Origin: Candidatus Nomurabacteria bacterium
GTDB taxonomy: Bacteria; Patescibacteriota; Minisyncoccia; Phycocordibacterales; UBA918
Assembly: GCA_023898585.1 (NCBI GenBank)
Contig: CP060229.1
Span: 854,587-918,586 of the forward strand
DNA: 64,000 nucleotides
Reading direction: 5' to 3'
In this document: positions 3,566-53,500 of the stretch, piece after piece
How positions within the stretch are numbered: position 1 is the stretch's first letter
How the letters are laid out: each line of letters starts with the position of its first letter
Made by a program: the position numbers and the translations under genes
Notes under the pieces: generated by a model
The model's database searches: none
What the model was told of the DNA's origin: nothing
The model's input: the letters and a program-made list of their open reading frames with translations, nothing else

Positions 3566-4900
3566 CTACTCTTGCCCATCCTTCAATTCTTCAATAATCA
3601 TTATTTCTTCAGCGTTATCGGGGAAAGATCTTTTCCAGAAAGGGGTAATACGGACGCTGGCACTGTCTATGCCGGAATAAGCCAATATCGCATTATGGAT
3701 TGCTGTTCTTGGTAATCCAGCCAAATCCTTGGTGAGCTTATTGACGTCATACTCCCAGACTAGTAGAGGTTTGCCTGTTAAATTAAACTTCAAGGAGGGT
3801 TCGTTGGCGATAACGCTGGAGCTGGTCGTTGGTGATGTATATCTGAACGAAAGAGCGTTCGGGTCATCTACTCTTACTTGATCACCGCTATATGTAGGGA
3901 TGGTTTCTCTTGCTAAGAATGACCCGAAATCCTTGGAATCAAAAAGAGGGATTTGCAATATCGCTTGCTCTTTTATCGTAACAAGGTCTTTTCCGTACTC
4001 GACAGCGGGAAGCTGGTTGTATGTTATTGCCACTGCATCTTGAAAAGCGATAAAATCAGCCGGTTTTTCGTTCTGGATTCTTGCTAGCAGGTTGTTGCGC
4101 AGGTCTATCTGTAATGCCTGTCTTGCAGTTTCAAGCGTACTGGTTCCGATTTGGAATTGTAGTCCGTCAAAGCCGTTGGTAAAAGGTTCTCTGTTTCTGG
4201 CAGAGATAGCTTTGAAAAGCTCGGTATAACCACCCTCTTCGAAGCCGGGTACATCAAAAGTCGTACCAGCCTTAATATTGTAGGTTTCTCCGACATCCTC
4301 GGCAAAAACCTCGGCTTGGATCGTACCGGGAACACTTGCACCATCATTATCCTTAACTGCACCGGGGACAACCACCGAATCCTTTATTTTAAATATCAAA
4401 CCTTCTGGTGTACGGAAGCGTGTGTTGGTGATAAGTCTCTCTGCTCCAGGGGTGGTTTTTATGATCTCTATGACTCCGGTAGCTTGTTCCTTTACTTGCA
4501 CTTGACCGGTTGCTTCGACTTGACTTTCGCTCGTTGCCTCAAGAGTCATTATTTCGTAACTCAACTCCCCGTCTCGTTTGTCGGGATAAGCCACAAAATC
4601 TGCATTAACATTTGGTTGGCGGTGTTTGGGATGAATTGTCAGTTCGGTTTTACCCAAAAGCGCACTCAAGCCGACAGCCGTACCAACTATAAACACAAAT
4701 AGAACAATTGACAGTATCAGTCTATTTCTGCCATTTTTATTACCGTCTTCTATCACAATACTTGGTATATCTTCCCGACTGGCTATTTCCGGTCGTGGCA
4801 CTTGTGGTTGTGCCGAAAGATCTGTCGTCGGTTGTAGGTAACTTCTTTTTTTTCTTGGTTGAGCGGGACGGATGTCCTGCAAATTCCATTTTTGTGACAT
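3566..4900 (-). CDS. Hypothetical membrane-anchored extracytoplasmic protein
   Basis: 444 aa; basic N-terminus then one TM helix (LILSIVLFVFIVGTAVGLSALL) and a large beta-rich ectodomain; no recognisable catalytic motif. Confidence 0.5.
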   Translation of the reverse strand: MSQKWNLQDIRPAQPRKKRSYLQPTTDLSAQPQVPRPEIASREDIPSIVIEDGNKNGRNRLILSIVLFVFIVGTAVGLSALLGKTELTIHPKHRQPNVNADFVAYPDKRDGELSYEIMTLEATSESQVEATGQVQVKEQATGVIEIIKTTPGAERLITNTRFRTPEGLIFKIKDSVVVPGAVKDNDGASVPGTIQAEVFAEDVGETYNIKAGTTFDVPGFEEGGYTELFKAISARNREPFTNGFDGLQFQIGTSTLETARQALQIDLRNNLLARIQNEKPADFIAFQDAVAITYNQLPAVEYGKDLVTIKEQAILQIPLFDSKDFGSFLARETIPTYSGDQVRVDDPNALSFRYTSPTTSSSVIANEPSLKFNLTGKPLLVWEYDVNKLTKDLAGLPRTAIHNAILAYSGIDSASVRITPFWKRSFPDNAEEIMIIEELKDGQE

Positions 4901-4923: not shown

Positions 4924-6156
4924 CTAGAAATACTCAAATGACCTGGTTTTTTCCTGAGTGTGGAAAAACATGGCAGATAAAAGCAGGGCTGTGTCATTGG
5001 GGATAGTTTGTGGCGATCCCTTGGTCGTCTCCTCATAGGTGCGACTAATAATTTCTTTAGACATGGGAATAATGTTCGGCTCTGCTTTGATGGTGCGTTT
5101 TACGGCTTTTCCAAGTAGTTCTGTAAAAACGGGCTCGCTTCCCAAGTCAACATGAAGTGACAGACGCCTGGGAATAGAGAGAGTATCTCCTGTTTCGTGG
5201 AAAAGAGTCGCGATGCGGTCTACATATGCTTCGAACATGTTTTCGACTTCTTTTCTTTTTTGTGCGTTGAGTGTCTTTGTAAAACTGAAAGGAGCTTCTG
5301 AGTGTAGGTAACCAAAAGCTTCGTGTAGAGGCGCGCCGGTAATGCTTGATATTTCTCTTGCTAGAGAAAAGTAACCAAACGGCGTGTGGGTGCAATAGGT
5401 TAAAACTCCATCTCGCATGATGCCAATTTCACTGGCTTCATAGGTGATGTCAACCAAACACAGATCATATGTTTCCGGAAAAAGTTCTTTGGTGACTGCG
5501 TAAAGCATGAGCATGAAAGAAAGCTTTTTAGACTTAGTGCCAGCAAACAACTTGTCACGCATTTCGTCAATGGCGTCTGATACGTATTTCTGGGCAACAA
5601 CGCTGGTATGCGAAAGGGTTAATGAATCAGATTTTCCTCCTTCGGGGTGTTTGATTCTGTATCCGCTTGTTAACATTTCCATATTGGCGCGAGTGATTAC
5701 GGTAAGGCCAAGGTTGTACGCCATTTCATCCTCCTTAAGGTCTTCTTTAATTTTGTTTTGGATGGTTCTCGTGAGCTCGTCTACCAGCTCTTCTGTTATT
5801 ACGAATTTTTTCTCCTGTTTATAATTTATGGTCTTTGTAACAGTGTATGACCAAGGGGCTGCTATTCCACATTGTAACTCGGTCAATTTGGCGCTCTTGT
5901 CGTAGTCAAACAAAACTTTTCTTCCCTCACCGTCTAACATCATTGAGGCATTAACCAAGGCTGTCATAACAGCTTTCGCGCTTTGTTCGAGTGAATCAAT
6001 ATTTCTAAGTGGAGCATGTTCGCGATGTGCCCAGATGATGTCGGGGTGTTTTTGAGCTGGGGCGGAACGAATAATTGCTACCAGCACACTACCGGAACCA
6101 ACGTCAATAAGTACCCCATACCGTTCGGATGATTTAGACATCCCAAAAAATGACAT
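4924..6156 (-). CDS. Actin-like (ASKHA) ATPase, FtsA/PilM-like
   Basis: 410 aa; N-terminal phosphate-1 motif (GVLIDVGSGSVLVAII) and a second DxxxE/G region (LVDITYEASEIGIMRDG) arranged as in FtsA/PilM/Hsp70-fold ATPases; exact family unresolved. Confidence 0.4.
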   Translation of the reverse strand: MSFFGMSKSSERYGVLIDVGSGSVLVAIIRSAPAQKHPDIIWAHREHAPLRNIDSLEQSAKAVMTALVNASMMLDGEGRKVLFDYDKSAKLTELQCGIAAPWSYTVTKTINYKQEKKFVITEELVDELTRTIQNKIKEDLKEDEMAYNLGLTVITRANMEMLTSGYRIKHPEGGKSDSLTLSHTSVVAQKYVSDAIDEMRDKLFAGTKSKKLSFMLMLYAVTKELFPETYDLCLVDITYEASEIGIMRDGVLTYCTHTPFGYFSLAREISSITGAPLHEAFGYLHSEAPFSFTKTLNAQKRKEVENMFEAYVDRIATLFHETGDTLSIPRRLSLHVDLGSEPVFTELLGKAVKRTIKAEPNIIPMSKEIISRTYEETTKGSPQTIPNDTALLLSAMFFHTQEKTRSFEYF

Positions 6157-15543: not shown

Positions 15544-16911
15544 TTAAATCTCTTCAACTCTTGGAACCACTTCGATTCTTGCGTCTTTGACTATCTCAGG
15601 CACTGATGGGAAATGTGGGAATCTGCAAGATAAACGTACGATCTTGGTAGATGTGAGAGGATCGGTGAGGTAGCTATTACTCCAGGCACCCATAGTTGGT
15701 TCGTAGTTAATCGTAAGTGGACTCACTGCGGTGTTAAACAATTCACATGTCAGATTGGCGGTGGAATTTATTTCAATGTCAACTTCACCTTTTTCGCCAC
15801 TTCTGACGATATTCGGGTCGGCTGTGATTTTTACTGTTGGCGTTGGTATCGTTTCGCAATTAGTCGATGTGATGTTGGTAGCCAGTCCCGGGGCACAACC
15901 AGCGTTTAAAGTTAAGGTATCAAGTTCTATGTCTGAAGCATTTGGACCTGAATACAGAGTGTATGTGACAGGGTCAACAGTTAGAGTGATATTTTCGGAT
16001 GAGTCAGAGCTGATGTTGTTCTCAAGAACTGAACTATCTGTTACGTTTCTGATCAATCCATTTGTTACGTATTCGACGTCCCACTCTAAGTCCATTGTGC
16101 AAGATGAATTGCCTGATTGTATAGGGCAAGTTGAATTATCAGTACTTAAAACACCTTTGAGACAAGCACTACCATCCCATTTGTACCCGTTTGCTGTATC
16201 GCAATGAAACTCACATTTACTTGCCGTATCACTTGGTTGGTAAACCACATTCGTTGTTCCGTTTGTAAGGCCGGTATCATCTCCCGGCCAGAAGATAGAG
16301 CCGGGAGGCATAGAGGCTATATTGTTACAAGTGTTCACATAGGTGGCGCTAACATCATCCATGTCTATCCAGCCGAGATCACTCGACCAAGCGTAGCCAT
16401 CAAGGGTGCCGTCGGCATTGACAGTGACGCCATCCAACACGATACAGCCATCATAACCACCTGAATTGGAAATGGTTGGATCAGCATTATACTCGTCTCT
16501 TATAGCTAAGATACGCGCGCCGCCTACTATATTATTTCCAATTCTTTCGGCTGGCGCTATAGCGGGGTTACAACTAGCTAGATCCGCACTGTTGAAGCTT
16601 ATCCAACCATAACCTCCCTCCGGCTCGCCATCGGTTCCACCACTCCAGGCGTAGCCAGATAGAAATCCATCACCGTCCGGTATGTCTACACCATATAAAC
16701 CGGGTTGACCGATATCACCGCCGTTGAAACTAACCCACCCCATACCTTCGTACACACCGGCTTCGTTATTGTCAGCACCCCCTCCCCAAGCAAAACCTCC
16801 AGAGAGTGATGCATAAACTGTGTTCACAAGAATAGCAATAAATAGCAAAGATGATGAAAGTAGAATAGGAATCAGAAACCGCGCTTTTAGAACTGACTGT
16901 TTACTGATCAT
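15544..16911 (-). CDS. Secreted/anchored repeat protein (GYAWS...GWISF repeats)
   Basis: 455 aa; N-terminal TM/signal anchor and repeated Gly/Trp-rich motifs (GFAWGGG, GMGWVSFNGG, GYAWSGG...GYGWISFNS, GYAWSSDLGWIDMD); no enzymatic motif. Confidence 0.5.
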   Translation of the reverse strand: MISKQSVLKARFLIPILLSSSLLFIAILVNTVYASLSGGFAWGGGADNNEAGVYEGMGWVSFNGGDIGQPGLYGVDIPDGDGFLSGYAWSGGTDGEPEGGYGWISFNSADLASCNPAIAPAERIGNNIVGGARILAIRDEYNADPTISNSGGYDGCIVLDGVTVNADGTLDGYAWSSDLGWIDMDDVSATYVNTCNNIASMPPGSIFWPGDDTGLTNGTTNVVYQPSDTASKCEFHCDTANGYKWDGSACLKGVLSTDNSTCPIQSGNSSCTMDLEWDVEYVTNGLIRNVTDSSVLENNISSDSSENITLTVDPVTYTLYSGPNASDIELDTLTLNAGCAPGLATNITSTNCETIPTPTVKITADPNIVRSGEKGEVDIEINSTANLTCELFNTAVSPLTINYEPTMGAWSNSYLTDPLTSTKIVRLSCRFPHFPSVPEIVKDARIEVVPRVEEI

Positions 16912-16919
16912 AAGTTATT

Positions 16920-18125
16920 TTAATTAATCGAGGCTACATTTTTCAGACAAATTGCCTGACAATTAAAGTGTAGGGCAGAGTCCTCAGCGCGTGTAGTATT
17001 TGATTTACAGACCACACCGCTATTATTTATGCGTTCACCTATTGATTCAAGAGAACCTTGAGAATACGAAGTTCCTCCAATCGTCGTGTACCCATTGGGA
17101 CAATCAACCTGTACTGTACACATGCTTTTACTTTTGTTCACAACGCTTCCATTTCCGCTTTCTTTATGACAGTTGTTTGCATCAAAATCTTTTGCAAACA
17201 CACCCTCGCGTATGACATAAGTGGATTGGTTGTCGACATAGTCCTTTGTAACAACCGTTCGACCTACATCACCGGCTACTGTGGACTGGCTTCTAATTTT
17301 ACCCTCCACGACCAACTTTTCTTGTGGGTTTGTCGTCCCAATCCCCACATTCCCTGTATCGTTGTAGATGTCGCCATTGCCTTTGATGGTCCAGTCGGCG
17401 TCAGCGCTACCGCCGGGGCCGGTGAAGTAAAATGTTTTACCCTCCGCCTCTAAGGTTGTTATAGACTTACCGAAACAATCTGTTTGGGAAGTATGACTCT
17501 CGCCGTTAAAACTTTTATCTGAGTTGAAGGCTACATATCTACCAACAGCCTGTCCATTTTGTGTAGTGTACAAAACTGATGCACTACCGGAAATAGCGGG
17601 GGCTGTTACTGCCGAGCCATTGGAATCAAGATAATATATCCACTTTAGATCAACGTCCCCGTCGCCTGTTACTTTACAAGAAATAGCGTCAGGCCATCCA
17701 GGTAACATAGAACTTCCTCCAGGACCACCCCCAAACGGCACAGACTGACAGATAGTCCCGTCACCGTTACAATACTCATCCGCTCCGATTTTGCCGTTAA
17801 CATCAAATAGCAGTCCGTTGGTTAGGATACCGCCCGCGCTACCAGTAAAGCTACTCAATATACCCCCTGCGCTGGTATCGAATATGATAGGACCGACTAC
17901 ACCTAATCCTAGCGGACTTGAACCATTAGCGTTTATCGTCAACCCTCCATTTTTAGTCTGCCCGTTACCAGTGGTAATCGGAGCGTTTATGTTACCGCCA
18001 GGCGCTGACGCGGTCGGAGCTGTCCACGCCAAAGCTATTTGTATGCCGGTGCCAAGTAAAAAGGTTACAACTAAAGTGAGTGCAATTTGCACCACTTTAT
18101 TCGAATATATTGATTTGGTATGCAT
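16920..18125 (-). CDS. Secreted/anchored Gly-rich protein with tail-fibre-like motif
   Basis: 401 aa; N-terminal hydrophobic anchor, Gly/Asn-rich beta region, and the motif GNVGIGTTNPQEKLVVEGKIR typical of phage tail-fibre-like/collar domains; Cys-rich C-terminus. Confidence 0.5.
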   Translation of the reverse strand: MHTKSIYSNKVVQIALTLVVTFLLGTGIQIALAWTAPTASAPGGNINAPITTGNGQTKNGGLTINANGSSPLGLGVVGPIIFDTSAGGILSSFTGSAGGILTNGLLFDVNGKIGADEYCNGDGTICQSVPFGGGPGGSSMLPGWPDAISCKVTGDGDVDLKWIYYLDSNGSAVTAPAISGSASVLYTTQNGQAVGRYVAFNSDKSFNGESHTSQTDCFGKSITTLEAEGKTFYFTGPGGSADADWTIKGNGDIYNDTGNVGIGTTNPQEKLVVEGKIRSQSTVAGDVGRTVVTKDYVDNQSTYVIREGVFAKDFDANNCHKESGNGSVVNKSKSMCTVQVDCPNGYTTIGGTSYSQGSLESIGERINNSGVVCKSNTTRAEDSALHFNCQAICLKNVASIN

Positions 18126-18796: not shown

Positions 18797-19828
18797 CTAA
18801 CGCAAATACCTTTCAATATTCATTAAATGTCGATCATAGGTTTCGGCAAAGTAGAATTCGCCCTCATCGTCTGTGATGTAGTAGTAGTACTCCGATAGGG
18901 TCGGCTCCAAAACAGCTGTTATGGCATTAAGACCCGGATTGCCAATCGGGGTTGGTGGTAGCCCAGTGTGCAGGTAAGTATTGTATGGAGACTCTATCTC
19001 AAGGTCTTCCGGAGTAAGGTCTGAAAGTGGTTTTTCCAAAATATATTCAATTGAAGCGTCTGCTTGCAGAGGCATACCTGTTCTAAGGCGGTTTTGGAGA
19101 ACACCAGAAACCAACTTCATGGATTCGGGCGTGTTGGCTTCTCTTTCGATTATCGACGCTAGTATTAAGATTTCGTCCATCGTTAGTTCTTGCTGTTCAA
19201 TCAGTGTTTGTAGACTGGTGGTTTTTTCAGCAAAAGTCTTTAGCAAAAGTTCCAACAATTCATCGTGAGTGAAGTCGGCCGGTATAAAGTAAGTGTCAGG
19301 GAAAAGTCTACCCTCTTGTGGCTCGGCCTTGTCTAAAAAATTTTTCGTATCAAAATTTGGCAATACTTCTTCTGCCCGCTTCGCCAACTGTGAAGCCCTT
19401 TCTCCCTCAATATGAGTGAAACGTATTAAATTGGTTGCAAAGTCACCCTTGGTCAGTCTCTCTGCCACTTCGGTGGTTGAAAGTGGTTGATCGAAGACAT
19501 AAGTGCTCGCTTTTATATCGGTTGGTTCATAGAAAAAGATGAGCGTGTAATACAGTAAACTGTTTGACCGAATCACTTTTTGCTCTTCCAGCGTTTCAGT
19601 GATGTCTTTAACCCCAGTTCCTTGAGTAATTGTGATTGGCACATTTATTGGAAAATCTTTCGGTGCTTCGTTGAGTGAGTTTGCCCAAAAATACAAACCG
19701 CCGAGTGTAATAAGAAGTAGTGCGCACAAAACTAACGTTAACTTAAAAAACTTACCTAAGGCAGTTCTTTGAGACTGTCCTTCCTGTAAACCCAATTCGG
19801 GACTGAATTTGATAGGTTCATCAGGCAT
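18797..19828 (-). CDS. mltG: Endolytic murein transglycosylase MltG (YceG family)
   Basis: YceG-family C-terminal motifs (GMPLQADASIEYIL...SPYNTYLHTGLPPTPIGNPGLNAITAVLEP). The ORF track's upstream extension to 19972 overlaps the neighbouring gene, so the internal Met (MPDEPIKF) is the likelier start. Confidence 0.75.
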   Translation of the reverse strand: MPDEPIKFSPELGLQEGQSQRTALGKFFKLTLVLCALLLITLGGLYFWANSLNEAPKDFPINVPITITQGTGVKDITETLEEQKVIRSNSLLYYTLIFFYEPTDIKASTYVFDQPLSTTEVAERLTKGDFATNLIRFTHIEGERASQLAKRAEEVLPNFDTKNFLDKAEPQEGRLFPDTYFIPADFTHDELLELLLKTFAEKTTSLQTLIEQQELTMDEILILASIIEREANTPESMKLVSGVLQNRLRTGMPLQADASIEYILEKPLSDLTPEDLEIESPYNTYLHTGLPPTPIGNPGLNAITAVLEPTLSEYYYYITDDEGEFYFAETYDRHLMNIERYLR

Positions 19829-21152
19829 AGGGCGTGTTACCGATTGGGAGATTGGCCGGAGCTTCTCTTCTTGTCGATTCCACCCTCGACATACTTGGAG
19901 TAAGAACAGATGTTCCGGGGATGTGATAAATAGTAGCCAGTTCCTCGACCGACATAACCTTAACCTTATCAACCCTTTTCTTTTTGTCGCCCGGCAAATA
20001 AAAACGGTGTTTGTAGTATTCTAGCTCGGTTTTTTTCATATTCCTTTTTCTTTGGCCGGAAAAGTCTGAAATGAAGTTGTAGTCGAAGTCGGTACGCCAG
20101 GTCGCTCCGAGTTGGTTCCTTCCCACCACATCATACTGCGCAAAAGCGCGCAAAAGTGGGCTGATCATGTCTGCGTCAAACTTTCCGGCTTCGGTTATGT
20201 ACATGGCTCTCACGACTGCGTCATACGCGTACTTACTGGTGTTGCGTTCAATGGCAGCGACCGTATCGCGCTCAGATAAAGTGAGGGTCGGTCTGTTTTC
20301 TGTTTCCTCTACCCCGCTACCTTCTTTGTCGCGCTTCATTATTTTGTCTATCACCTCCTTGGCGTGTACTTCCCATGTCGGCACATCAGATAGACTACCC
20401 CTCACTAAATTTTTGGGAGCGTGAGCGGTACAGAGAATTTGCACCCAGATTCTTTCGTGTGGTTTACACTTACCCAAATGTTCTATTAAGGGCGACATTG
20501 GTTCGAACTTTAATTCTTCTTTTGGTAGTTTATCCATCCCGAAATCAATGTAGGTTTTGATCGGGTAAACCTCGTCTTGTTTTTTTGTCATGTGGAATGA
20601 GATAAGGTCCCATTTTTTTTCGTCCCAAACCACTTCGGCGGCGTAGTCTATTAATTCTTCCACTATTTCAATACCCGGGTATTGAGCATAGAACTGCGCT
20701 TCGACAGCATTTTTGCCTTTTTTGGTTGGCACGTTGACATAAAAACGCACTTCTCCACCAATGGAGACAATCTCAAAGCTGTAGACCAAGGGGTGGCGAC
20801 CGTCGAAGTAGGTCTGCATGTAGTTGTCCGGTCTACTTGGGTTATGGATTTGGGTGAAGATACTTTCCATTGCTTCCGGTGACTTCAAAACTTCCTGTGG
20901 CAGTTTGATACGAAGAGTCGTTCGACCGTTATCGTATTTGAATTTTTCTGTCATGCTCCACATCCACATGTCAAACAAAACATAGAAAAAAACAACTGGT
21001 AGCCACAGCGGAGTCAAAACGATAACTACAGTGAGAATCGGTCTTATGTCTACATTGAGCAATGAAAAAACATAAAACATTATGCCTAAAGCAATGAATA
21101 AAAATAATGGTGTTGCGATGTTAACAACCATTGTTTTTGAGGAATCTCGCAT
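19821..21152 (-). CDS. Hypothetical membrane protein (2 N-terminal TM + large soluble domain)
   Basis: 443 aa; two N-terminal TM helices then a mixed alpha/beta domain; no recognised motif. Confidence 0.45.
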   Translation of the reverse strand: MRDSSKTMVVNIATPLFLFIALGIMFYVFSLLNVDIRPILTVVIVLTPLWLPVVFFYVLFDMWMWSMTEKFKYDNGRTTLRIKLPQEVLKSPEAMESIFTQIHNPSRPDNYMQTYFDGRHPLVYSFEIVSIGGEVRFYVNVPTKKGKNAVEAQFYAQYPGIEIVEELIDYAAEVVWDEKKWDLISFHMTKKQDEVYPIKTYIDFGMDKLPKEELKFEPMSPLIEHLGKCKPHERIWVQILCTAHAPKNLVRGSLSDVPTWEVHAKEVIDKIMKRDKEGSGVEETENRPTLTLSERDTVAAIERNTSKYAYDAVVRAMYITEAGKFDADMISPLLRAFAQYDVVGRNQLGATWRTDFDYNFISDFSGQRKRNMKKTELEYYKHRFYLPGDKKKRVDKVKVMSVEELATIYHIPGTSVLTPSMSRVESTRREAPANLPIGNTPYA

Positions 21153-22357: not shown

Positions 22358-22551
22358 TAGAGCATGTCCAAAACCCTACACAAAGGAGTAAATCCTTCTC
22401 TAATATTTTGTTCCGGCTCGTCGGTTTGCAAAATTTGGTCAAAAAACCGCTATGATTTCTTACCGTACATCAGTATGGCTCGAAATTCTATCAATTTTTT
22501 GTCTCAAATTTTGCAAACCTTTGGAGCTCGGAGGGTTTTTGGACATGCTCT
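22358..22551. repeat. Nested inverted-repeat structured element (~190 bp) overlapping the leuS stop codon
   Basis: Outer IR tagagcatgtccaaaaccct (22358-22377) / agggtttttggacatgctcta (22531-22551); inner IR gtttgcaaaatttg (22424-22437) / caaattttgcaaac (22505-22518). No conserved ORF inside. Confidence 0.5.
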
Positions 22552-25339
22552 AAGAAATGATAAGGTTCAGAATTCTGCCTTGTACATAAATAATTTTTGT
22601 AATTTTATGATCTTTTATTCTGTTTGCGAGGGCTTCATTTTCATTGACTGCCTTCAGTGCTTCTTCTTCTGATGCTTCCCCCGAAATAGTTATCTCCCCT
22701 CTCATTTTGCCGTTAATTTGCACTCCGATAGTCACCGCTTCATCTTTAGTAAGGTCTGGGTCGTATGTGGGAAATTTTGCAATATGGATACTGCCTTCAT
22801 TGCCAATTTCGTGCCAAATTTCTTCGGTCAGATGTGGAGCGAAGGGGGCAAGAATCACCAAGAATTTTTTGTAGCTATCCGCAGTGAGACCGGTTTTTTC
22901 CGCCAGATTGACAAAGATCATCATCGCGCTGATGGCGGTATTAAATTTGAATTCTTTGATGTCTTCTGAAACCTTCTTGATTGTTTTATGGAGTTGTCTC
23001 GTCGTTTCATCAGGTTCGGTGTCGCTTATGTGCTCTCTCAAGCCGTTAACTCGTTCGAGAAACCGCCTTGCTCCAACCAGACCATCTTGCGACCAAGCAA
23101 TCGTGTTTTCGAACGGTCCCATGAACATTTCATAAACTCGTAAAGTATCCGCTCCCACCAAATTTACTATTTCATCGGGATTGATGACATTTCCCCATCT
23201 TTTACTCATTTTTCGTCCGTCTTCCGCCAAGATAAAGCCGAGAAATTCCAGTCTCTGGAAGGGTTCCTCTGTACTTACTACCCCGATATCGTAGAGAAAC
23301 TTGTGCCAAAAACGAGCGTAGATAAGGTGTCGTACAGCATGGTCGCCACCAACATAGACGTCAACCGGTGCCCAAAACTTCTCATTTTTCTTACTTACCA
23401 GTTCTTTAGTGTTGTGGGGGTCCATGTAGCGCAAGTAGTACCAGGAAGAACCGGCCCACTGTGGCATGGTATTGGTCTCTCGTCGGCCGGATCCGGCACA
23501 TTTCGGGCACTTTGTATTTACCCAATCCTCTATATTGGCAAGTGGTGATTGCCCGTCGCCTGCCGGCTCGTACTTCTCTACGTCCGGCAACACAACTGGC
23601 AACTCACTATCCGGTACTGGTACAGCGCCACATTTATCACAGTGAATGATCGGAATTGGCTCTCCCCAGTAGCGCTGGCGTGAAAACACCCAATCTTTGA
23701 TCTTGTATGTTTTGGTTAGTCGACCCCCTACCTTTTTGGTGATGGCGATTTTGGCTTCTTTGGAGTTCATGCCGTCAAACTCGTCGGAATTAATCAATTT
23801 ACCTAAAGCTATTGTCGGTTGATCAATCATGCTGTGAGCGAAGTCTTTTAATGAAAAAGCCCATTCATCATCTGGAATTCCTTCCAGGGAATCGAATATT
23901 TCCAATTGACCTTCATGAACTGATAAATTCGAATCGTCGACTTTATCTATGAAGTAAAAAGCATATTCTTCTCTTAAATCAGAACTAGATTTTCTAAGAT
24001 ATACGAGTCTGGGCGCTAGTTTATTTTTTATAATGTCTAATTCCAGTTCCTCATGCAGTTCTCTAGCTAGAGCTTGTTCGGGTGATTCTCCTTTCTCAAC
24101 ATGACCACCAAAAGTGCAAAGTTTATCAGGGCTGGTCGGTGCCCCTGTACGTCGCTGTAACAGGTACTTTCCTTCCCGATTCCTGATAAATGCGCCAGTT
24201 GCCTTTACTCTATTTATAGTTGGTATTTCGGTTATTACGTATCTAATCCCAATCCCAAACTTTTTCGCAAACGCAAAGTCTCGCTCATCATGCGCCGGGA
24301 CAGCCATAATCGCGCCCGTACCGTAGCTTGCGAGCACATAGTCAGCGATATACACCGGAATTGTCTCGCCATTGGCTGGATTGACTGCCGTTATCCCTTC
24401 CAGCTTCACTCCAGTTTTGTCTTTGGTTGCGTCAAGTCGATCCATTTCTTTTTTACCCTCCGCTTCTTTCACGTATGTCTCAACTTCATGCCAATTCAAA
24501 ATAACTTTACTGTATTTCTCTATAAATTCGTGCTCCGGTGCCAAAACCAAGTAAGTAGCTCCGAAAAGGGTGTCCGGACGAGTGGTAAAGACTGTTACTT
24601 TCCCACCAATCGACAATTCAAAGTCAATTTCCGCTCCCTCACTACGCCCGATCCAATTGCGTTGCGCCTCTTTAATATGTTCCGGCCACTCCAGGGTATC
24701 CAAATCTGCAAGCATCCGATCGGCGTACTCCCGGATTTTTAATACCCACTGTCGCATTGGTTTTTGCTCCACTTTACTCTCGCAACGCTCGCAGGTACCG
24801 TCCGCCTCCAGATCCTCATTAGCCAGTCCTGTCTGGCAACCGGGACACCAGTTGATCGGCTCATTGCTTTCGTAAGCCAGACCTTTTTTGAAAAGTTGAA
24901 TAAAAATCCACTGTGTCCATTTGTAATAATTTGGGTCTGTAGTATTGATTTCTCTTTCCCAATCATAGTCAAAGCCCAACACTTCCAACTGCTCTTTAAA
25001 GCGTGCGACGTTTTTCTCGACCGCCACGCGCGGATGGGTTTTGTTTTTGATGGCGAAGTTTTCTGCCGGCAGACCAAAAGCGTCCCAGCCCATCGGGTGT
25101 AGTACTTCGTGTCCGGTCATTCTCATGAAACGGGAGTAAATATCGGTCGCGATATAGCCTTTGGGGTGTCCAACGTGCAGTCCTTCGCCTGACGGATACG
25201 GAAACATGTCCAACACAAATGCTTTCGGTTTGCTGGTGTTTTCGTTAGTTTTATACAGTTTGTTCTCGCGCCAATTTTCGCGCCATTTGCTTTCTATTTG
25301 TTTGTGGTCGAAACGTTTATGCATACAAAATCTAGGCAC
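22550..25339 (-). CDS. leuS: Leucine--tRNA ligase with a NUDIX hydrolase domain inserted in the CP1 editing domain
   Basis: 929 aa; HVGH (LHVGHPKGY), KMSKR, editing-domain motifs TTRPDTLFGATYLVLAPEH and GTGAIMAVPAHDERDFAFAKKFGI, and an anticodon-binding domain. Residues ~376-510 (nt 23810-24214) form a Nudix fold with the Nudix box GGHVEKGESPEQALARELHEELEL. Confidence 0.9.
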   Translation of the reverse strand: MPRFCMHKRFDHKQIESKWRENWRENKLYKTNENTSKPKAFVLDMFPYPSGEGLHVGHPKGYIATDIYSRFMRMTGHEVLHPMGWDAFGLPAENFAIKNKTHPRVAVEKNVARFKEQLEVLGFDYDWEREINTTDPNYYKWTQWIFIQLFKKGLAYESNEPINWCPGCQTGLANEDLEADGTCERCESKVEQKPMRQWVLKIREYADRMLADLDTLEWPEHIKEAQRNWIGRSEGAEIDFELSIGGKVTVFTTRPDTLFGATYLVLAPEHEFIEKYSKVILNWHEVETYVKEAEGKKEMDRLDATKDKTGVKLEGITAVNPANGETIPVYIADYVLASYGTGAIMAVPAHDERDFAFAKKFGIGIRYVITEIPTINRVKATGAFIRNREGKYLLQRRTGAPTSPDKLCTFGGHVEKGESPEQALARELHEELELDIIKNKLAPRLVYLRKSSSDLREEYAFYFIDKVDDSNLSVHEGQLEIFDSLEGIPDDEWAFSLKDFAHSMIDQPTIALGKLINSDEFDGMNSKEAKIAITKKVGGRLTKTYKIKDWVFSRQRYWGEPIPIIHCDKCGAVPVPDSELPVVLPDVEKYEPAGDGQSPLANIEDWVNTKCPKCAGSGRRETNTMPQWAGSSWYYLRYMDPHNTKELVSKKNEKFWAPVDVYVGGDHAVRHLIYARFWHKFLYDIGVVSTEEPFQRLEFLGFILAEDGRKMSKRWGNVINPDEIVNLVGADTLRVYEMFMGPFENTIAWSQDGLVGARRFLERVNGLREHISDTEPDETTRQLHKTIKKVSEDIKEFKFNTAISAMMIFVNLAEKTGLTADSYKKFLVILAPFAPHLTEEIWHEIGNEGSIHIAKFPTYDPDLTKDEAVTIGVQINGKMRGEITISGEASEEEALKAVNENEALANRIKDHKITKIIYVQGRILNLIIS

Positions 25340-25470
25340 CTTTTATTGATAATTAATTAAACATTATTCTGCCACTGTTCAGTAAATGTGCAAATTATTT
25401 CTTTGAATTTATGTGTGAAGCATCAAGTTGTGTTTATTGGCCATTCATTCTGCTGTATAATCTGATTATT

Positions 25471-25740
25471 ATGAAACAAGAAGATTTGAGAAATGCACCC
25501 AAATTATTTTGCGAGAGCATAAATGTCGCCTTCACCCCGGAGTACTTTGTGGTTGGCATGACTTCAGGTAACCAAGGTTCGATTTATACACTTACCCCGC
25601 AACACGCTAAGAGATTGAAACAGTATTTGGAACATCAGGTAAAAGAATTTGAAGAAAAACATGGTGAAATCAATGCTAAGTGGGACCCGAATATCCTCAG
25701 TCCGATGCAAAGGGTTAAACCACTGGCCGAGGGAAGTTAA
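25471..25740 (+). CDS. DUF3467-like small protein
   Basis: Starts at the internal Met (MKQEDLRN). The motif INVAFTPEYFVVGMTSGNQGSIYTLTPQHAKRLKQYLEHQVKEFEEKHGEI resembles the DUF3467 family. It is one of the few plus-strand genes in the first half of the window. Confidence 0.45.
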   Translation: MKQEDLRNAPKLFCESINVAFTPEYFVVGMTSGNQGSIYTLTPQHAKRLKQYLEHQVKEFEEKHGEINAKWDPNILSPMQRVKPLAEGS

Positions 25741-25747
25741 ACGGGCA

Positions 25748-25777
25748 TAAAAAAACTGCCCCGGTACAACGCGGGGC
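25748..25777 (-). terminator. Rho-independent terminator after the 196-aa ORF
   Basis: Stem gccccg/cggggc with an 8-nt loop, followed on the minus strand by a U7 run (plus-strand A7 at 25749-25755). Confidence 0.5.
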
Positions 25778-25799
25778 GAGTTGAGAGACAGTTGCGAAA

Positions 25800-26390
25800 T
25801 CAAAGCATCTGTTTAAGAATCTCTAACCTATTTCTAAATGACACGCAAAGTTTTATGTTTTCCTTGAGCAGTCTTTCCAAGTCGCTGACTTCCTTTCTTA
25901 TCCTTGCCAGATAAAAATCCCTCCATTTGAGAGGAGAATGCCATTTTTGCTGAAACAAAGCCAACTTGCGCTTATCTTCGGTGTTTGTCTCGGGGTCTTG
26001 TAGCCACTGCATAATGGACACGAAAGGTCTTTTTCCTTTAATCTCTGGTCGACAATCGGGGTCGTAGTTCTTGAACGAAGCAACGATCTCTGTCGGCTGG
26101 TGCTTGATTGATATTTCGCCCCAAGTGTGATCGTCAACAATTAAGCACTTTCTAAACCTAAAATACTCAATTGAAACTACCGCATCAAAATCCTCAAGGA
26201 TCATAAGTCCCTGAAGGGCAGCTCTGATAGCATCCCTGTATGATGGACTCACTTCAATATCACAACCTCGTCCCGAATATATCGGTAGTTGCAACATATC
26301 TTCAGTGAGAGTGGTTCTTACGTGTTTCTCTGGTTCCGCCCAAGCAAAACAGAAAAGAAATTTTCTGCTACTAACGAGTCTAACGGTCAT
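25800..26390 (-). CDS. Hypothetical protein
   Basis: 196-aa ORF with coding-like composition; no recognised motifs. Confidence 0.4.
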   Translation of the reverse strand: MTVRLVSSRKFLFCFAWAEPEKHVRTTLTEDMLQLPIYSGRGCDIEVSPSYRDAIRAALQGLMILEDFDAVVSIEYFRFRKCLIVDDHTWGEISIKHQPTEIVASFKNYDPDCRPEIKGKRPFVSIMQWLQDPETNTEDKRKLALFQQKWHSPLKWRDFYLARIRKEVSDLERLLKENIKLCVSFRNRLEILKQML

Positions 26391-26463
26391 GTGTATTTCC
26401 CCTGTAAAAAAGCTTCTTTCACTAAGTTATAGCAAAGCGACTTGGTTGTCTATGGAAGTACGA

Positions 26464-26666
26464 GGAAGCGCGGCCGAAGTGGCTAAAAATATGTGTGAGA
26501 GACAAGCTGGAGCACGAGGCATATCGGGATATGTTGAGTGCGATGCGTGCGTTTCGTAGCCATATTTTAGCCACGACGACCGGAAATGAATTAGAATAAC
26601 ATTATTTTCATGGTGAGACTTCAGACAGTTTCACCTAGCCGAAGCGCGGCCGAAGGCCGCGCTTCC
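26464..26666. mobile_element. MITE-like palindromic repeat, copy A (inverted relative to copy B), flanked by a 15-bp direct repeat
   Basis: ~160-bp body (26480-26640) whose reverse complement is ~90% identical to 40498-40639. Flanked by the direct repeats gaagcgcggccgaag (26465-26479 and 26641-26655). The right-hand copy is part of a perfect GC hairpin gaagcgcggcc-gaa-ggccgcgcttc, 22 nt downstream of the ychF stop. Internal IR gtggctaaaaatatg / catattttagccac. Confidence 0.55.
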
Positions 26667-26688: not shown

Positions 26689-27789
26689 TTACGAGTGCAT
26701 AAACTCAATCACGTCTCCGTCTTGCACCACGTACTCCCTGCCTTCGGTTCTGAGCTTACCTTGATCGCGAGCAACAGATTTTGACCCACTGGCCACCAAA
26801 TCTTCAAATTTTACCACCTGTGCGCGAATATACTTTGTCTGAAAGTCACTATGAATAACACCTCCCGCTTCCGGTCCAGTACTACCTTCTGGTATTGTCC
26901 AAGCACGCGTTTCTTTTTCGCCGGTCGTGAAATAACTGATCAGACCAAGACTATGGTAAGCGACTCTGATCAGCGATTCGACACCGTTTTCCTGTGCTCC
27001 ATACTCGCGACGAAATTCGTTTTTCTCACTCTCGGAAAAATCTTTTAGCTCGTGTTCCATTCCTGCGTCGACCACTACATACTCAGATCCGGTCTTTTCA
27101 AAAAACTCCACTAATTCGTCCCATCTTGGGTCGCTTTGTTCGTCCAGGTTAAAAGCATCTTGTTTTTTGTTGCAGACATATAAAAACTTCTTCATTGTTA
27201 AAAGATGAAGATCTTTAATCTGTTTTTTCTCATCTTTCGTCATTTCAAAACTATTAGCTAAAGATCCGGCATCCAAATGCACTAGAAGCTTTTCCAGCAA
27301 AGTTTTCTCTGCGATAGCCGGCTTGTCTCCTCGCTTAACCTCCTTCTCCAAGTTATTGACACGCTTTGCTACTGTCTCGGCGTCAGCCATGATAAGTTCC
27401 AGGTTAATAACTTCAATATCTCCCATCGGGTCAACTCCGCCGGAGACATGGTGGATATCACTGTCTTCAAAAATTCTTACCACCTCGGCAATCATGTCGG
27501 TTTCCCGAATATTAGCGAGGAACTTGTTCCCGAGTCCTTCGCCGGCCGAAGCTCCTTTTACCAGTCCTGCAATATCAACAAATTCCACAATGGCCGGGAT
27601 GATGTCTTTAGATTTTGAAATTTCGGCCAAAGTGGTGAGTCTATGGTCGGGTACGGCAACTACCCCAACTGTCGGGTCGATTGTGCAAAACGGATAGTTG
27701 GCCATTTCGACCGAATTTTTCGTGAGTGCATTAAAAAGGGTTGATTTTCCAACATTTGGTAGACCGGCAATTCCGACAGATAGTGACAT
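26689..27789 (-). CDS. ychF: Ribosome-binding ATPase YchF (Obg-family GTPase-like)
   Basis: 366 aa; G1 motif GIAGLPNVGKSTLFNALT, NYPFCTIDPTVG, and a TGS C-terminal domain. Confidence 0.85.
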   Translation of the reverse strand: MSLSVGIAGLPNVGKSTLFNALTKNSVEMANYPFCTIDPTVGVVAVPDHRLTTLAEISKSKDIIPAIVEFVDIAGLVKGASAGEGLGNKFLANIRETDMIAEVVRIFEDSDIHHVSGGVDPMGDIEVINLELIMADAETVAKRVNNLEKEVKRGDKPAIAEKTLLEKLLVHLDAGSLANSFEMTKDEKKQIKDLHLLTMKKFLYVCNKKQDAFNLDEQSDPRWDELVEFFEKTGSEYVVVDAGMEHELKDFSESEKNEFRREYGAQENGVESLIRVAYHSLGLISYFTTGEKETRAWTIPEGSTGPEAGGVIHSDFQTKYIRAQVVKFEDLVASGSKSVARDQGKLRTEGREYVVQDGDVIEFMHS

Positions 27790-40461: not shown

Positions 40462-40497
40462 GTTATGGATTATATCTTATCATGGATAATAGTTTGA

Positions 40498-40740
40498 GAA
40501 ACTGTCTGAAGTCTCACCATGAAAATAATTGTTATTTAAATTCATTTCGGGTCGTCGTGGCTAAAAATATGGCTACGAAAATACGCTTCGCACTCAACAT
40601 ATCCCGATATGCTTCGTGCTCCAGCTTGTTTCTCACCACTAGAGTACTTCCGTCTTCATAGTCGCTAATCTCTCCTTGAAGACTAGGTCGCGCTCATATT
40701 TTTAGCCACTTTGGACTCCGATGAGACTTCAGACAGTTTC
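40498..40740. mobile_element. MITE-like palindromic repeat, copy B (243 bp) with 19-bp terminal inverted repeats
   Basis: TIRs gaaactgtctgaagtctca (40498-40516) / tgagacttcagacagtttc (40722-40740); internal IR gtggctaaaaatatg / catatttttagccac; core is ~90% identical to the reverse complement of 26494-26640. The right TIR overlaps the pgi stop codon by 1 nt. No conserved ORF. Confidence 0.6.
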
Positions 40741-41999
40741 TAAGACCTGAGACCAAGAATGGCCCGGGTCTTGATTTTATAAAGTTCAACATTTGGCTGA
40801 TCGAAGGCGTTGACATTCATAAGCTCCGCTACATACATTGTTTCCAACATACGCATACCCATAAAAAGGCCGAGAGCGTATGGCAAATCTTCAGTAAATA
40901 TTGTTGAGCGGTATGGCAACTGACGTTCTCTGTAAGCTTCTATCACCCCTCCATAAATAGCTGTTGCTACCTCCTCCGCATCAAACCTTCCAAAAATTTT
41001 TGACATTCCTTTTTTAGGAATATCGTAGTTAGCGGAGTCATCGTCGAAAGTGACAAAATCAGTATATACTCCTTGAAAACCGCTGAAATATAATTGTCCA
41101 ACTGAGTGTAGTTCCGTCGGGGTCGAGACTGTAGGTAAAAAACCGCTCTTGACTAGCTTTCCCGCACGGTCTTTTTCTTTGCCAATACTTTCCGCAAATA
41201 GTTGTCTGTACCATGCTCCCAGCTTATACAATCGCGACTCAAAGGCGAAAAAATTATAGTGCTTGAAATTCTTTACCATGTAGTGTTGTAGCTTGACTGC
41301 GCTTTCTGCTACCACAGACTCAAACTCATCCTCCAGAACATCAACCACTCCCGAGATAAAGGAGTCGGTATCGTGACCTAAAATCGCTAGAGGCAGGAGC
41401 CCGACTTCTGTCGCAACAGAGTATCTACCACCAACGATTGTCGGCATATCAACGATGTTTGCACCCAATCTTTTCCCTGTCTTCATAAAATCCGTCCCGG
41501 GGTTGCCGATAAAAATCGTTTGACCGTATATAGTTTTACTGAACCTTTTTTCTAAGATATCTAAAATAATTCCGGCGTTGACCAGAGTTTCAGTGGTATT
41601 GCCCGATTTGCTCACAACACAAACAGCTATTTTTTTTACCGAACGAACACTTTGCAGTTCCTCGACCAACAAACTCATTTTATGGGTAGAGACATGATCC
41701 AATGAATGAAGTTTCACTTTACCTTTGTCGAGAACTTCATGAACAGCTTCCGTACCCAGATTTGAACCACCAATTCCAACCAGCACTAGGTGTTGCACGC
41801 CTTTAAACTGCTTTTTGATATTATCAACGAGATCGTGTACTTGCGGATTTCTTGTATGCACGAGAGAGTATTCAGGTCTACAGTTGTCATTGTCTTCCCT
41901 AACTTTCTTCACTTCATCTCGATACTTCTTCAACTTTTTCATCCCTACCTGCTGTGTTTTCGGAGTGAGTGAATTAATATCAAAATAAGAAAAATTCAT
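40740..41999 (-). CDS. pgi: Glucose-6-phosphate isomerase
   Basis: 419 aa; PGI signature region (HLVLVGIGGSNLGTEAV) and SIS-domain organisation. Confidence 0.8.
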   Translation of the reverse strand: MNFSYFDINSLTPKTQQVGMKKLKKYRDEVKKVREDNDNCRPEYSLVHTRNPQVHDLVDNIKKQFKGVQHLVLVGIGGSNLGTEAVHEVLDKGKVKLHSLDHVSTHKMSLLVEELQSVRSVKKIAVCVVSKSGNTTETLVNAGIILDILEKRFSKTIYGQTIFIGNPGTDFMKTGKRLGANIVDMPTIVGGRYSVATEVGLLPLAILGHDTDSFISGVVDVLEDEFESVVAESAVKLQHYMVKNFKHYNFFAFESRLYKLGAWYRQLFAESIGKEKDRAGKLVKSGFLPTVSTPTELHSVGQLYFSGFQGVYTDFVTFDDDSANYDIPKKGMSKIFGRFDAEEVATAIYGGVIEAYRERQLPYRSTIFTEDLPYALGLFMGMRMLETMYVAELMNVNAFDQPNVELYKIKTRAILGLRS

Positions 42000-43817: not shown

Positions 43818-43902
43818 TCCTCCGAAGGGTTACCCTTCGCGAAGGGTAACCCTTCGGGATGTAAATTACCCTTCGCGAAGGGTAACCCTTCGGGATGTAA
43901 AT
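43818..43902. repeat. Tandem 36-bp palindromic direct repeats (2.3 copies)
   Basis: Unit tacccttcgcgaagggtaacccttcgggatgtaaat at 43831-43866 and 43867-43902, plus a partial copy at 43818-43830; each unit contains the perfect palindrome acccttcgcgaagggt. Lies between convergent genes. Confidence 0.6.
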
Positions 43903-50569: not shown

Positions 50570-53500
50570 TTAAAATACCGGTACCGCTACATAGGTTATT
50601 GTTGTAGTGTAGTCACCAGCCGGCTGAAGCTCTCTGGCTTTGATTCTGTATATGATGTTTTCTACGTCGACTGAGGCTATGGAACTGTACATTATTTCAT
50701 CCAATGAAGTACTGAGAGAAGCGTACGAATCAAGTGGAGCAAACCTGGCCGAGCCACCTTCGAGTGTAGCGTCGGTGGTGTGGTAGCCGGAACAACTAAT
50801 CGCACCTCCTGTGCATCCAGTAGACCAACCGACCGGTGATGCGTTTGTGCCGGTTATCGGTATGATTTGGTTTCCATAGGAATCAAGTAGTTGCTGATCC
50901 ACATACTTAAAGACCTGATAACCTTCGATCGCGTTAGTATCGACAGTAATTTGCTGTGCCACTTCAACATCGGTATCAAGAGGCAGTGACCCGAAATCGA
51001 CAGAAGTTGCCGTCGTGGTAGCGTCTGTCGTTATTCCTGCTATCGAAGTGTTGGCGTCGACACCATCGATGGTAAAAGTAAGAGAGGCACTTTCTCCAGC
51101 CAGGCTGGGGTTTGAAGTACTCGCGAAGACCACTTCGTTATTAGCAAGATCATACAGTCTGAAGTGATAAACCCTGCCGTAATTACGTTCCACATTGGTG
51201 TACTTAAGAGCAAACTCGTATTCCGTCTTATCTCCTCCATTATGTGTGAAGCCGTTGTAGTAATAAGAACTTTCATTATGAGTGCCACATCCGGCCCCGA
51301 CACTTGCCACGCAACTATCAGAATCGGAAAGTACCGCCGTTGTAATTACTTCATTGTCAACTCCTCCACCATCTTCATAACACCAAACTGAACTGGCCAC
51401 ACACGAAGATGTGGCGACAACATCTTGAGCATCACTGAAATCAGCCTGTTCAGCAAACTGTATTTTGAATCGAGCATTCACTTGGGTCAAGTTCTTTATC
51501 TCGTCCAAAGTGACTCTCAACTTAACCGAGTCGTCTTTTAAAACATTGGTTGGAGCTATGTTCTCCGGTGCTAGATCAACGGTTGGTGTTTCGTTTGTCT
51601 CATCGCCGTACCAACGCCAGGAAGTGATGACCGGTGTGTAACCTTCTGTCCTTATTTCAGGGTAATAAAGATAACCATCGAGTGGAGTGTCGTCAGACTT
51701 AATCATGCGAAAACAGTAAGTGGTTCTTTGTGCGGCTCCGTTTTGCTCAATTAACCAATCGTATTCAACATCTTCACCATCATAAACCGGATACTGATTG
51801 GCTAACGACGGGTTGTTTTCGGTGTAGCGCCCGGCACGATCTGATATTGAAATTAGCAAATCGCCTCCGGTTGGCGGATTGCCCGAAAGTGAAACACCGT
51901 CTGTGATTCCTGGCGCATCGTATCCTCTCCAAATCGCACCACTTCCAACTGAACCGACATCAGTCCATGAGACAACTGCCGAGCAAGTTGTGCTTCTAAC
52001 AGCGTATTGCAATTTTGTCGTCACCAGACCAGCGGGTAAAGTAGCATTACTTACTTTCAAACTCATTCTTATGCGGATTCTGTCACCATCAGCCAGTGGT
52101 GCATCAAGCGCCCCAATGGAAGTATTCTCTCCAAGATTGTCAATTCCCGGTGGCCATGGATCAGTCGGTTTCAAAGCGTCGTTATCCACATAAAAACGAT
52201 AGTAATTTTGTCGCACTGCGAGGTCTGCGGCTGGCCATTGAACAACCTCGGTTCGGTAAGCTAATACTTGACCGGTGTCACTACGCCACAATTCATAGGT
52301 GCTGGTCGACATTATAGTAGCTCCGGCTATCATTCTTGGATAATTATTTCCCGTTCCGGTAACGGACGTAGTCAAAAATATGGATGCGTTATTGGTTGCA
52401 TTGAGAGGCGTCGGGATGTTAACCGAGATACTAAGTGGCTCTGAACCGCCGGTTGTGTTTCCATTACTTCTTTGTACGAGCATTTCTCCGGTACTGGTCT
52501 GGGTGTTTTCGATAATCCAGGCTACAGAAACGTGATTGGAGGTAAGTAGAGCTTGCGGTTCCAAAAGAAATGACACAGCGCCAATACTCGATAGCCATAC
52601 TTCATGACCGAAGTCGGCCAAGCCAAGACTACTGGCGTATCGTTTTTGCGAATGAATGAAAGTGCGAGCTAGGCTATTAACGGCGGTTATGTTTTCAGTC
52701 TCCGTCACTCCGACCGCTGAATAAGAATGCTCAACTCTCTGCACTTTCCAATTTAGTCCCACGAATTCAACTACAGCGTAACTCACGTAACCATCATTAG
52801 CTCCGGTGTCATTACGAGTAAAGACCGGTTCATTTGTTGAAGATGACCAAGAAGCGGTCGACTGATGCCCGTAGCCTTCAGATCGGTTACCGCCGGTGTG
52901 TTGTTGTCCTGTAATAAAGACAACAATGTCGCTGTCATCAACTACGGTTGAAACTGCGGTACCTGTCCCTATAGTATCCGCCACACCATAATTTATAAGA
53001 CTTTGACTTCTAACGAAAATTTCGTTATCTCCACCCGGTGGACCAATATATTCAACAATCTCCCAAGCTACATAAGTATTATTTATAGAGTCACTGTCTC
53101 TCGCAATCGTGAAACTCGTTTCTATATTCCAAGGGTTAGAAATATAAGCGGCATAGTCGTCGGTGTTTTGGTTCCCTCCATTAGAGTCTTTACCAGCACC
53201 TGTGTAATGTGAATTCGTGATCCTAACAAAGGCACTCGTTGAGGCACTCGGTGCGACATAATCTGTACCGGCTGTTAATGTGACACCAGAGCCACTCACT
53301 ATATTGACTCCCCGCTGAATTTTAAAATCTCTTCTTGCTTCTATCGACACTTCAGCGTACTGGTCGTACTGCAAGAGAGGATCACCATTTTGAGTTGCTC
53401 TAAAACAAAAAGTAGTTTCGTAAGGCGTGTCGTTTGTAGTTGTAATGGCATACTCAAGATCAACGTACTGAGTCTGCGTTAAGGTGGTGGTAGCTGAAAA

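Follow-up and report, generated by a model that had tools for sequence, protein, structure and literature searches.

A 15-nt duplication at a hairpin downstream of ychF in a CPR bacterium: a probable recombination scar involving a MITE-like element

How did the first 15 nt of a GC-rich hairpin next to ychF come to be present twice, with a repeat element lying between the two copies? The stretch of DNA analyzed here (64 kb in full, hereafter the window) had been read in a first-pass annotation as carrying a repeat body enclosed by a 15-bp direct duplication with its copies 176 bp apart, and two origins had been offered: the footprint of an insertion of the IS200/IS605-PATE or REP-targeting kind and, as a fallback, recombination at the hairpin. 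The duplication is exact. The sequence GAAGCGCGGCCGAAG is found at 26465-26479 and 26641-26655, 176 nt apart, and at no third site in the 64-kb window, also when two mismatches are tolerated; for matches with up to two mismatches the chance expectation is 0.05, and two matches were reached in 0 of 100 shuffles. The second copy forms the first 15 nt of a perfect hairpin at 26641-26665, GAAGCGCGGCC-GAA-GGCCGCGCTTC (11-bp stem, GAA loop), which lies where it had been reported, after the ychF stop codon (26689-26691, minus strand) at a distance of 22 nt. Its extreme G+C content, earlier put at ~75%, was measured as 21 of 27 nt (78%) versus ~43% for the window. The label "terminator" did not hold up: a T-run after the hairpin is absent on both strands, the terminator scan found none, and neither the promoter nor the terminator scan gave a signal above background. 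Intrinsic (Rho-independent) terminators consist of a GC-rich stem-loop followed by a U-tract; the hairpin at 26641-26665 is not a canonical intrinsic terminator, and a terminator role for it is unproven. The features of the site are as follows.

25800-26390, minus strand: ORF of 196 aa without a Pfam match, in mosaic DNA (25853-26129 like haplotype F, 26200-26479 like haplotype E, see below).
26464-26475, plus strand: duplicate copy of the hairpin 5' arm, GGAAGCGCGGCC, running on from the left flank as in the empty-site allele.
26465-26479, no strand: direct repeat copy 1, GAAGCGCGGCCGAAG, ending at junction J1 (26479/26480).
26480-26632, plus strand: copy A, a 5'-truncated MITE-like element of 153 nt, 92% identical to copy B over 140 nt.
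26629-26644, plus strand: junction piece TTTCACCTAGCCGAAG, which corresponds to TTTCACCTATGCCGAAG in element Y of the sister strains.
26641-26665, no strand: GC-rich hairpin; the empty and canonical haplotypes have it once, with 12 bp.
26689-27789, minus strand: ychF, 366 aa, with YchF domains.

The insert between the two copies of GAAGCGCGGCCGAAG measures 161 nt. The statement that the repeat body lies exactly between the duplicates is correct for the 153 nt at 26480-26632, which are homologous to copy B, but not for the last 8 nt, ACCTAGCC (26633-26640), which are foreign, being neither MITE nor hairpin sequence. The duplicate arm at 26464-26475 is able to pair with 26655-26666 and would thereby close the whole insert.

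The element part of the insert belongs to a repeat family with three copies in the window, A, B and C, and more in other Parcubacteria. A and B had been recognized before and are real, whereas C had been missed and was found by a covariance model, which was built from A, B and the homologous elements of three unrelated contigs, namely L012 (MAG WY3.bin123) and L013 and L015 (both JGI metagenomes). The two further copies in the window are:

40497-40741, minus strand: copy B, full-length, 245 nt, with perfect 20-bp TIRs (20/20), AGAAACTGTCTGAAGTCTCA.
22359-22551, minus strand: copy C, of a divergent subfamily, 193 nt long and bounded by terminal repeats of its own, AGAGCATGTCCAAAAACCCT / AGGGTTTTGGACATGCTCT.

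Family members are 184-245 nt long and are overlapped by short, non-conserved ORFs only (≤84 aa). All share a common rod fold, composed of P1 (the TIRs), a linker, a P2 of 15-19 bp, an apical core hairpin and a 3' side hairpin. Canonical copies have TIRs of 19-20 bp, with terminal repeats of the GAAACTGTCTGAAGTCTCA and GAGCATGTCCAAAAACCC types, and appear to be flanked by 3-bp TTA/TAA duplications. In L012 and L013 the TIRs pair at 18/19 and 19/19 positions, respectively. A perfect 3-bp repeat flanks the elements of L012 (TTA), L013 (TTA) and, as described below, the composite haplotype F (TAA); in B (TTA/TCA), C (TTA/TAA) and L015 the two trinucleotides do not match perfectly. We regard the repeat as a non-coding, MITE-like family of Parcubacteria whose parent element was not found in our scans. 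The nearest named YchF and PGI relatives belong to Candidatus Kaiserbacteria, Nomurabacteria and Paceibacteria, with about 80% (YchF) and 72% (PGI) identity, which places the window in a CPR/Parcubacteria genome.

Copies B and C sit at gene ends. The first two bases of B (AG) complete the pgi stop codon TAG, and the PGI of the window ends in ..ILGLRS, 2 aa longer than the ..ILGL of its orthologs; B also contains an inner 15-bp inverted repeat, GTGGCTAAAAATATG/CATATTTTTAGCCAC. An empty site for B was not found, as all related contigs spanning the site carry it (100% identical in L004). Between P2 and the core, B has an extra segment of 57 nt (40638-40694, minus strand), absent from every other member and provided with its own 7-bp inverted repeat GTCTTCA..TGAAGAC, which may be a nested insertion. 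A link of this segment to the ychF flank via the shared 8-mer GGAAGTAC was rejected as chance, with an alignment score equal to the shuffled mean. Copy C was matched by the covariance model over its full length (67.9 bits, E = 1e-12); its TIRs of 19-20 bp contain one bulge, it starts inside the leuS stop codon TAG, and an orthologous copy is present in L007/L008. The adjoining leucyl-tRNA synthetase (929 aa; 22550-25339, minus strand) has a NUDIX domain at residues 378-478 after the editing domain, an architecture shared by the L007/L008 orthologs. A weak match of the model (21 bits, E = 0.014) falls on 43830-43901, where a 36-nt unit, TTACCCTTCGCGAAGGGTAACCCTTCGGGATGTAAA, is repeated perfectly in tandem (two copies), each copy holding the small GC-rich palindromes ACCCTTCGCGAAGGGT and CCCTTCGGG.

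Copy A scores 127.7 bits with the covariance model and retains P2, the apical core, the side hairpin and the right TIR (1 mismatch), while the left TIR and the linker (32 nt) are missing; accordingly, only one TIR match lies near copy A, compared with two for copy B. The idea that A is a decayed copy was dropped, as the core motif positions in question vary across all members in the family alignment.

Related contigs were retrieved via exact-protein look-ups of the neighboring genes and are 98.6-100% identical to the window. Among these near-identical strains three versions of the site are found: E (empty), F (canonical) and W (the window). An empty site downstream of ychF had been proposed as a check on the insertion, and haplotype E (L005, L006 and L007) provides it. 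Its left flank is identical to the window at 26391-26479, that is, up to 26479, and is followed by a single hairpin and no MITE-like element, which bears out the earlier view that the insertion is located in the hairpin. The intact hairpin of E has 12 bp, GGAAGCGCGGCC-GAA-GGCCGCGCTTCC; to its right follow a 25-nt spacer, the 179-nt element Y and ychF. Haplotype F carries a full-length element with TIRs of 19-20 bp and a 3-bp TAA duplication; an intact hairpin follows 8 nt further right. The left junction of F (L024-26) reads ..GTTGTCTATC / TAA / GAAACTGTATGAAGTCTCATCGGAGTCCAAAGTGGCTAA, with the flank ending in ..CTATC, and the right junction (L002/L003) reads ..CAGTTTC / TAA / GTACGAAGAAGCGCGGCCgaaGGCCGCGCTTCC... 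F is pieced together as a composite, the contigs coming from different samples and all breaking inside the element, and we infer its interior as well as the membership of its two ends in one allele. The ychF site is thus polymorphic for presence and absence, with empty and filled alleles. The short-read contigs L001, L002, L003, L019, L020 and L024-26 stop 26-106 nt past ychF, pgi or the 196-aa gene, and their ends fall in or beside repeats: most inside the MITE-like element, L001 inside Y and L003 at the hairpin. Because these assemblies of related strains break at the small repeats, the elements are systematically under-represented in assemblies of this kind.

Element Y, which is absent from the window, lies between the hairpin and ychF in the sister strains.

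L006 3740-3918, L005 3833-4011 and L001 4098-4187: element Y, 179 nt, DNA fold z = -8.7.

Y is bounded by TTTTAC..TTTTAC and contains two similar subterminal hairpins, CCCCGAGCtcttgGCTCGGGG and CCCTGTGCtcttgGCACAGGG; they lie in direct orientation at distances of 17 nt and 8 nt from its ends. PATEs derived from IS200/IS605 elements have neither TIRs nor target duplications; they carry similar subterminal hairpins in direct orientation and insert 3' of a fixed tetra- or pentanucleotide. The geometry of Y is similar, with insertion after TTTTAC (3' of TTAC) and an end in TTTTAC, and Y may therefore be an IS200/IS605-derived PATE, a class that it fits better than A, B and C do. L005 offers a second copy context for Y; the genes adjoining Y in L005 include no transposase, one being of an exonuclease family and the other unannotated.

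With these sequences at hand the window can be read base by base across three junctions. At J1 the E-type flank continues unbroken into the hairpin 5' arm and loop (..GGAAGCGCGGCCGAAG) and the element begins on the right side at its nucleotide 33 (TGGCTAAAAATATG..), so that the loop ..GCCGAAG is joined to TGGCTAA..; the sequence across the join is GCGGCCGAAG / TGGCTAAAAA. Loop (GCCGAAGG) and element (TCCAAAGT) share the microhomology AAG here, or CCRAAG if imperfect matching is allowed. At J2 the last base of the element (..CAGTTTC, 26632) is followed by the 8 nt ACCTAGCC, with TTTC as shared bases. J3 marks the return to the hairpin, at its fifth base (GAAG / CGCGGCC..), with GAAG in common; J2 and J3 together read CAGTTTC / ACCTAGCCGAAG / CGCGGCC. 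All three junctions hence show microhomology of 3-4 nt. The piece TTTCACCTAGCCGAAG agrees with Y at 16 of 17 nt, and its Smith-Waterman score of 27 compares with 13.5 ± 2.1 for shuffled sequences, none of 1000 shuffles scoring as high. Since the exit at J1 is from the GAAG of the loop and the re-entry at J3 is at the GAAG of the stem base, 15 nt upstream, precisely those 15 nt are present twice. Exact look-ups of the junction-spanning ORFs found none on record, and the W arrangement (J1-J3) was seen in no other assembly among those accessible to the search.

The flanks of the site are mosaic. At 23600-25830 and 26200-26479 W and E do not differ; in between, at 25853-26129, W differs from F at 2 positions, whereas E differs there at 43 positions. 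The 18-nt spacer to the right of the window hairpin is F-like. From 26685 rightwards W is 100.000% identical over 4105 nt to the Y-bearing L001 and 99.25% identical to F; in L001, ychF is directly followed by Y, at the place taken in the window by the hairpin and copy A. Over 5.2 kb the MAG contig GCA_020428745.1 (L004) and the window do not differ (100% identity). Part of this flank mosaicism could stem from strain-mixing by the metagenome assembler rather than from recombination. The ORF at 25800-26390 has 196 aa in the window and in haplotype F and 160 aa in haplotype E, the difference being due to the tract with 43 differences plus indels. Elsewhere in the window, an ORF of 2058 aa (50570-56746, minus strand) matches no Pfam family at E = 1e-5 or better, and further large ORFs without a Pfam match are located at 3566-4900, 4924-6156, 15544-16911, 16920-18125, 19821-21152 and 56838-58685.

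From what was observed here, namely three haplotypes with their junctions, the mosaic nature of the flanks and the anatomy of the family, we conclude that the 15-nt duplication is probably the scar of a recombination that joined part of a MITE to the hairpin, and not a target-site duplication. The fallback of the first-pass annotation is accordingly the one favored by the microhomology junctions, the Y-derived piece and the mosaic flanks. W would be a derived recombinant, which follows E-type sequence as far as the hairpin loop, would then have jumped from the loop into nucleotide 33 of the element via AAG (or CCRAAG if imperfect), would have run to the right end of the element, jumped via TTTC to a 12-nt piece of Y and finally returned via GAAG to the hairpin base, 15 nt upstream of its exit. 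This would require at least one microhomology-mediated illegitimate recombination or template-switch event among haplotypes that appear to recombine freely at the ychF locus already. The hairpin would be a likely breakpoint, given its repeated GAAG and CCGAAG motifs and its presumed ability to stall replication or to extrude. Element, hairpin and Y occur together in no single known genome; a three-junction event therefore needs an unseen ancestor, or else several steps. The order of events and the enzymology, replicative switching versus break repair, are what we infer.

Microhomology-mediated template switching and illegitimate recombination at palindromes are general mechanisms. W resembles their products in its several junctions with 3-4 nt of microhomology, its short insertions templated by nearby sequence, the duplication produced by a staggered re-entry and the hairpin-forming site. 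It differs from typical template switching in that the template sources are spread over different haplotypes, and the mechanism is deduced from sequence alone.

A different reading starts from the fold of the family. In the common structure, standard pairs occupy 88-90% of the pair cells, compared with 33-43% in slid controls, and both-sided (compensatory) changes are seen in 24-31 of 60 pairs versus 3-12 in slid controls; 0 of 500 shuffles attained the observed values. The sequence of P2 is wholly different among B, L012, L013 and C, with the pairing kept throughout, and P1 covaries in C. Both A (-89.2 kcal/mol, z = -7.8) and B (-102.6 kcal/mol, z = -9.6) are predicted to fold very stably, and four of six copies show a strand preference, with a fold that is better on one strand by 14-18 kcal/mol. 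The consensus pairs of an alignment fitted to that strand include 25 G.U versus 12 A.C; this excess hints at a constraint at the RNA level. For the ychF locus it could be proposed that the site is a functional structured RNA locus, in which the local hairpin and the 12-bp long-range stem alternate as a switch for ychF 3'-end formation or for an antisense RNA, the family being a mobile RNA gene. The stability of the folds, the strand preference, the G.U to A.C ratio, the extensive covariation and the minimum-free-energy fold of copy A, which employs the long-range 12-bp closing stem, would all agree with such a function. However, strains whose ychF is 100% identical do without copy A, which is therefore dispensable; any insertion into a hairpin loop automatically yields a closing stem; a U-tract after the hairpin is absent on both strands; and the strand bias is partly built into the strand-fitted alignment, with P2 of L015 showing the opposite bias. 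Together with a promoter signal not above background and the lack of an Rfam match, these points make a functional RNA locus at ychF quite improbable, all the more as conserved RNA folds have already been described for bacterial MITEs (PMC2229807).

The Rfam comparison yielded only a tRNA in the window at the gathering threshold, and under permissive settings the best matches in the two repeat regions remained at 20 bits or below with E = 0.2 or worse. Several known RNA or DNA classes were considered and rejected for the family: 6S RNA, which a multi-copy, TIR-bearing element overlapping stop codons does not fit; retron msr/msd, with no reverse transcriptase nearby; integron attC, with neither R'/R'' boxes nor a cassette array; and bridge, omega or reRNA guides, with no adjacent recombinase or nuclease gene. 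For the family as a whole, the view that the TIRs enclose a mobile gene, whose product would be a structured RNA of CPR bacteria with its rod fold selected in the transcript, is unlikely in our judgment; it builds on the compensatory replacement in P1, P2 and the apical hairpin, on the G.U bias of the sense strand and on the motifs AGCUGGAGCAC and G(C/U)AGCC. If it were true, the RNA could have a regulatory role or could serve its own mobilization machinery, and the hairpin stem that replaces the lost P1 in copy A would be structure-preserving and not accidental. The covarying fold makes the family a reasonable candidate for a role at the RNA level, which is unproven.

A third explanation, and the main reading of the first-pass annotation, is hairpin-targeted transposition, in which staggered cleavage of the palindrome would have left a 15-bp target-site duplication, whether by a PATE, a REP-targeting element or a dyad-targeting MITE. 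In its favor, there is an empty allele with a single hairpin, the duplicated 15 nt match perfectly and extend exactly from stem base to loop, and the canonical copy of haplotype F is inserted only 8 nt from the same hairpin. There is also a precedent, the nearest one for insertion at hairpins: YPAL/RU-2 elements of Yersinia are reported to occupy dyad-symmetry sites, with variable duplications of 3-26 bp at or next to the dyad symmetries (PMC2229807). YPAL elements, with internal inverted repeats, are inserted intact, whereas copy A is truncated and chimeric, and the intact copies of our family (the F composite, L012 and L013) have 3-bp duplications. Further points tell against this explanation. 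Copy A is without its left TIR and 32 nt, 8 foreign nt belonging to the 16-nt match with Y separate the end of the element from the repeat, the recognizable flanking duplications of other copies comprise 3 bp, and B, C, L012, L013 and L015 are all situated outside hairpins. A target-site duplication generated at the hairpin is very unlikely on this evidence.

The specific footprint first proposed, that of an IS200/IS605-derived PATE or of a REP-targeting element, fails for the same reasons and for additional ones. The family does share a small size, an abundance of hairpins and a non-coding nature with PATEs, but the ends of B, C, L012 and L013 are mutually pairing inverted repeats, 3-bp TTA/TAA repeats flank the intact copies, and TIRs are absent from IS200/IS605 elements. 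The recommended search for TnpB or IS200-like genes was negative for the 64 kb covered: Pfam detected no Y1 or TnpB domain in 47 ORFs of the window, and no window ORF of at least 150 aa has a transposase domain of any kind. REP/BIME sequences are imperfect palindromes of 20-40 nt with a conserved GTAG head that occur in clusters and are accompanied by a RAYT gene; at this site the hairpin sequence occurs only once as a hairpin, no clusters were observed, and the window ORFs contain no RAYT-like domain.

Finally, an assembly or amplification artefact, by which the source assembly of the window would have fused strain variants and repeats into a chimera, is suggested by the fact that no other contig reproduces J1-J3, that the short-read assemblies of the relatives all break at exactly these repeats and that the flanks resemble a mix of two co-occurring strains, but it is very doubtful, since junction overlaps of 3-4 nt lie far below assembler k-mers and cannot be created by a graph mis-join, all segments are in direct orientation unlike in typical amplification chimeras, and the sequence on both sides is otherwise clean.

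Returning to recombination as the preferred origin of the duplication, the family itself invites comparison with known mobile elements. Bacterial MITEs such as Correia/NEMIS of Neisseria, RUP of S. pneumoniae and ERIC/IRU have been reviewed (PMC2229807, PMC3184786). Like these, the present family is short (about 200 nt or less), non-coding, A+T-rich and TIR-bearing, with TA-containing termini, short apparent target duplications and a location in intergenic regions or at gene ends; a transcript fold with paired 5' and 3' ends, predicted in our case, and presence/absence differences between strains are likewise shared. In contrast to Correia/NEMIS, RUP and ERIC/IRU, to which it has no sequence similarity, it resides in CPR/Parcubacteria hosts and is flanked by a 3-bp repeat (TTA/TAA) instead of TA. 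It also departs from bacterial MITEs in the unusually strong compensatory change of its interior and in that the cognate IS was not found in our scans.

Duplications of 3 bp (TNA/TWA) are characteristic of IS5-family and PIF-Harbinger DDE transposons and of Tourist-like MITEs. The TTA/TAA duplications and the terminal repeats beginning with GA/GG agree with this group, and the canonical copies were presumably mobilized by a DDE transposase supplied in trans; an IS5/PIF-like transposase as the mobilizer is a lead only. Genome and metagenome scans for an autonomous transposon with the same TIRs returned short elements and chance matches only; these scans used the exact 19-mer, by which a diverged parent could be missed. 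The exact TIR 19-mer identified real elements in 1 of 2 genome matches and in 2 of 3 metagenome matches, those in L011 and L014 being due to chance. Exact 20/21-mers of the core gave 0 matches in viral and genome collections, and a BLAST search of copy B against plasmids and phages gave no match. Matches of the gapped core pattern and of the copy C repeats in viral contigs were discarded as chance after rejection by the covariance model.

Parcubacteria have small genomes and a poorly known repertoire of mobile elements. A limited search of the literature on MITEs in CPR bacteria returned only unrelated work, and the MITE-like family appears to be previously undescribed. The feature that had been flagged in the window most likely reflects ordinary genome plasticity in a CPR bacterium. 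By the comparison of empty, canonical and rearranged alleles it provides a worked example showing that what looks like a perfect target-site duplication may instead have arisen as a scar of recombination, and it cautions against calling hairpin-targeting elements from one genome. For the Parcubacteria, the ychF site emerges as a hot spot for at least two kinds of tiny mobile element and for recombination between strains.
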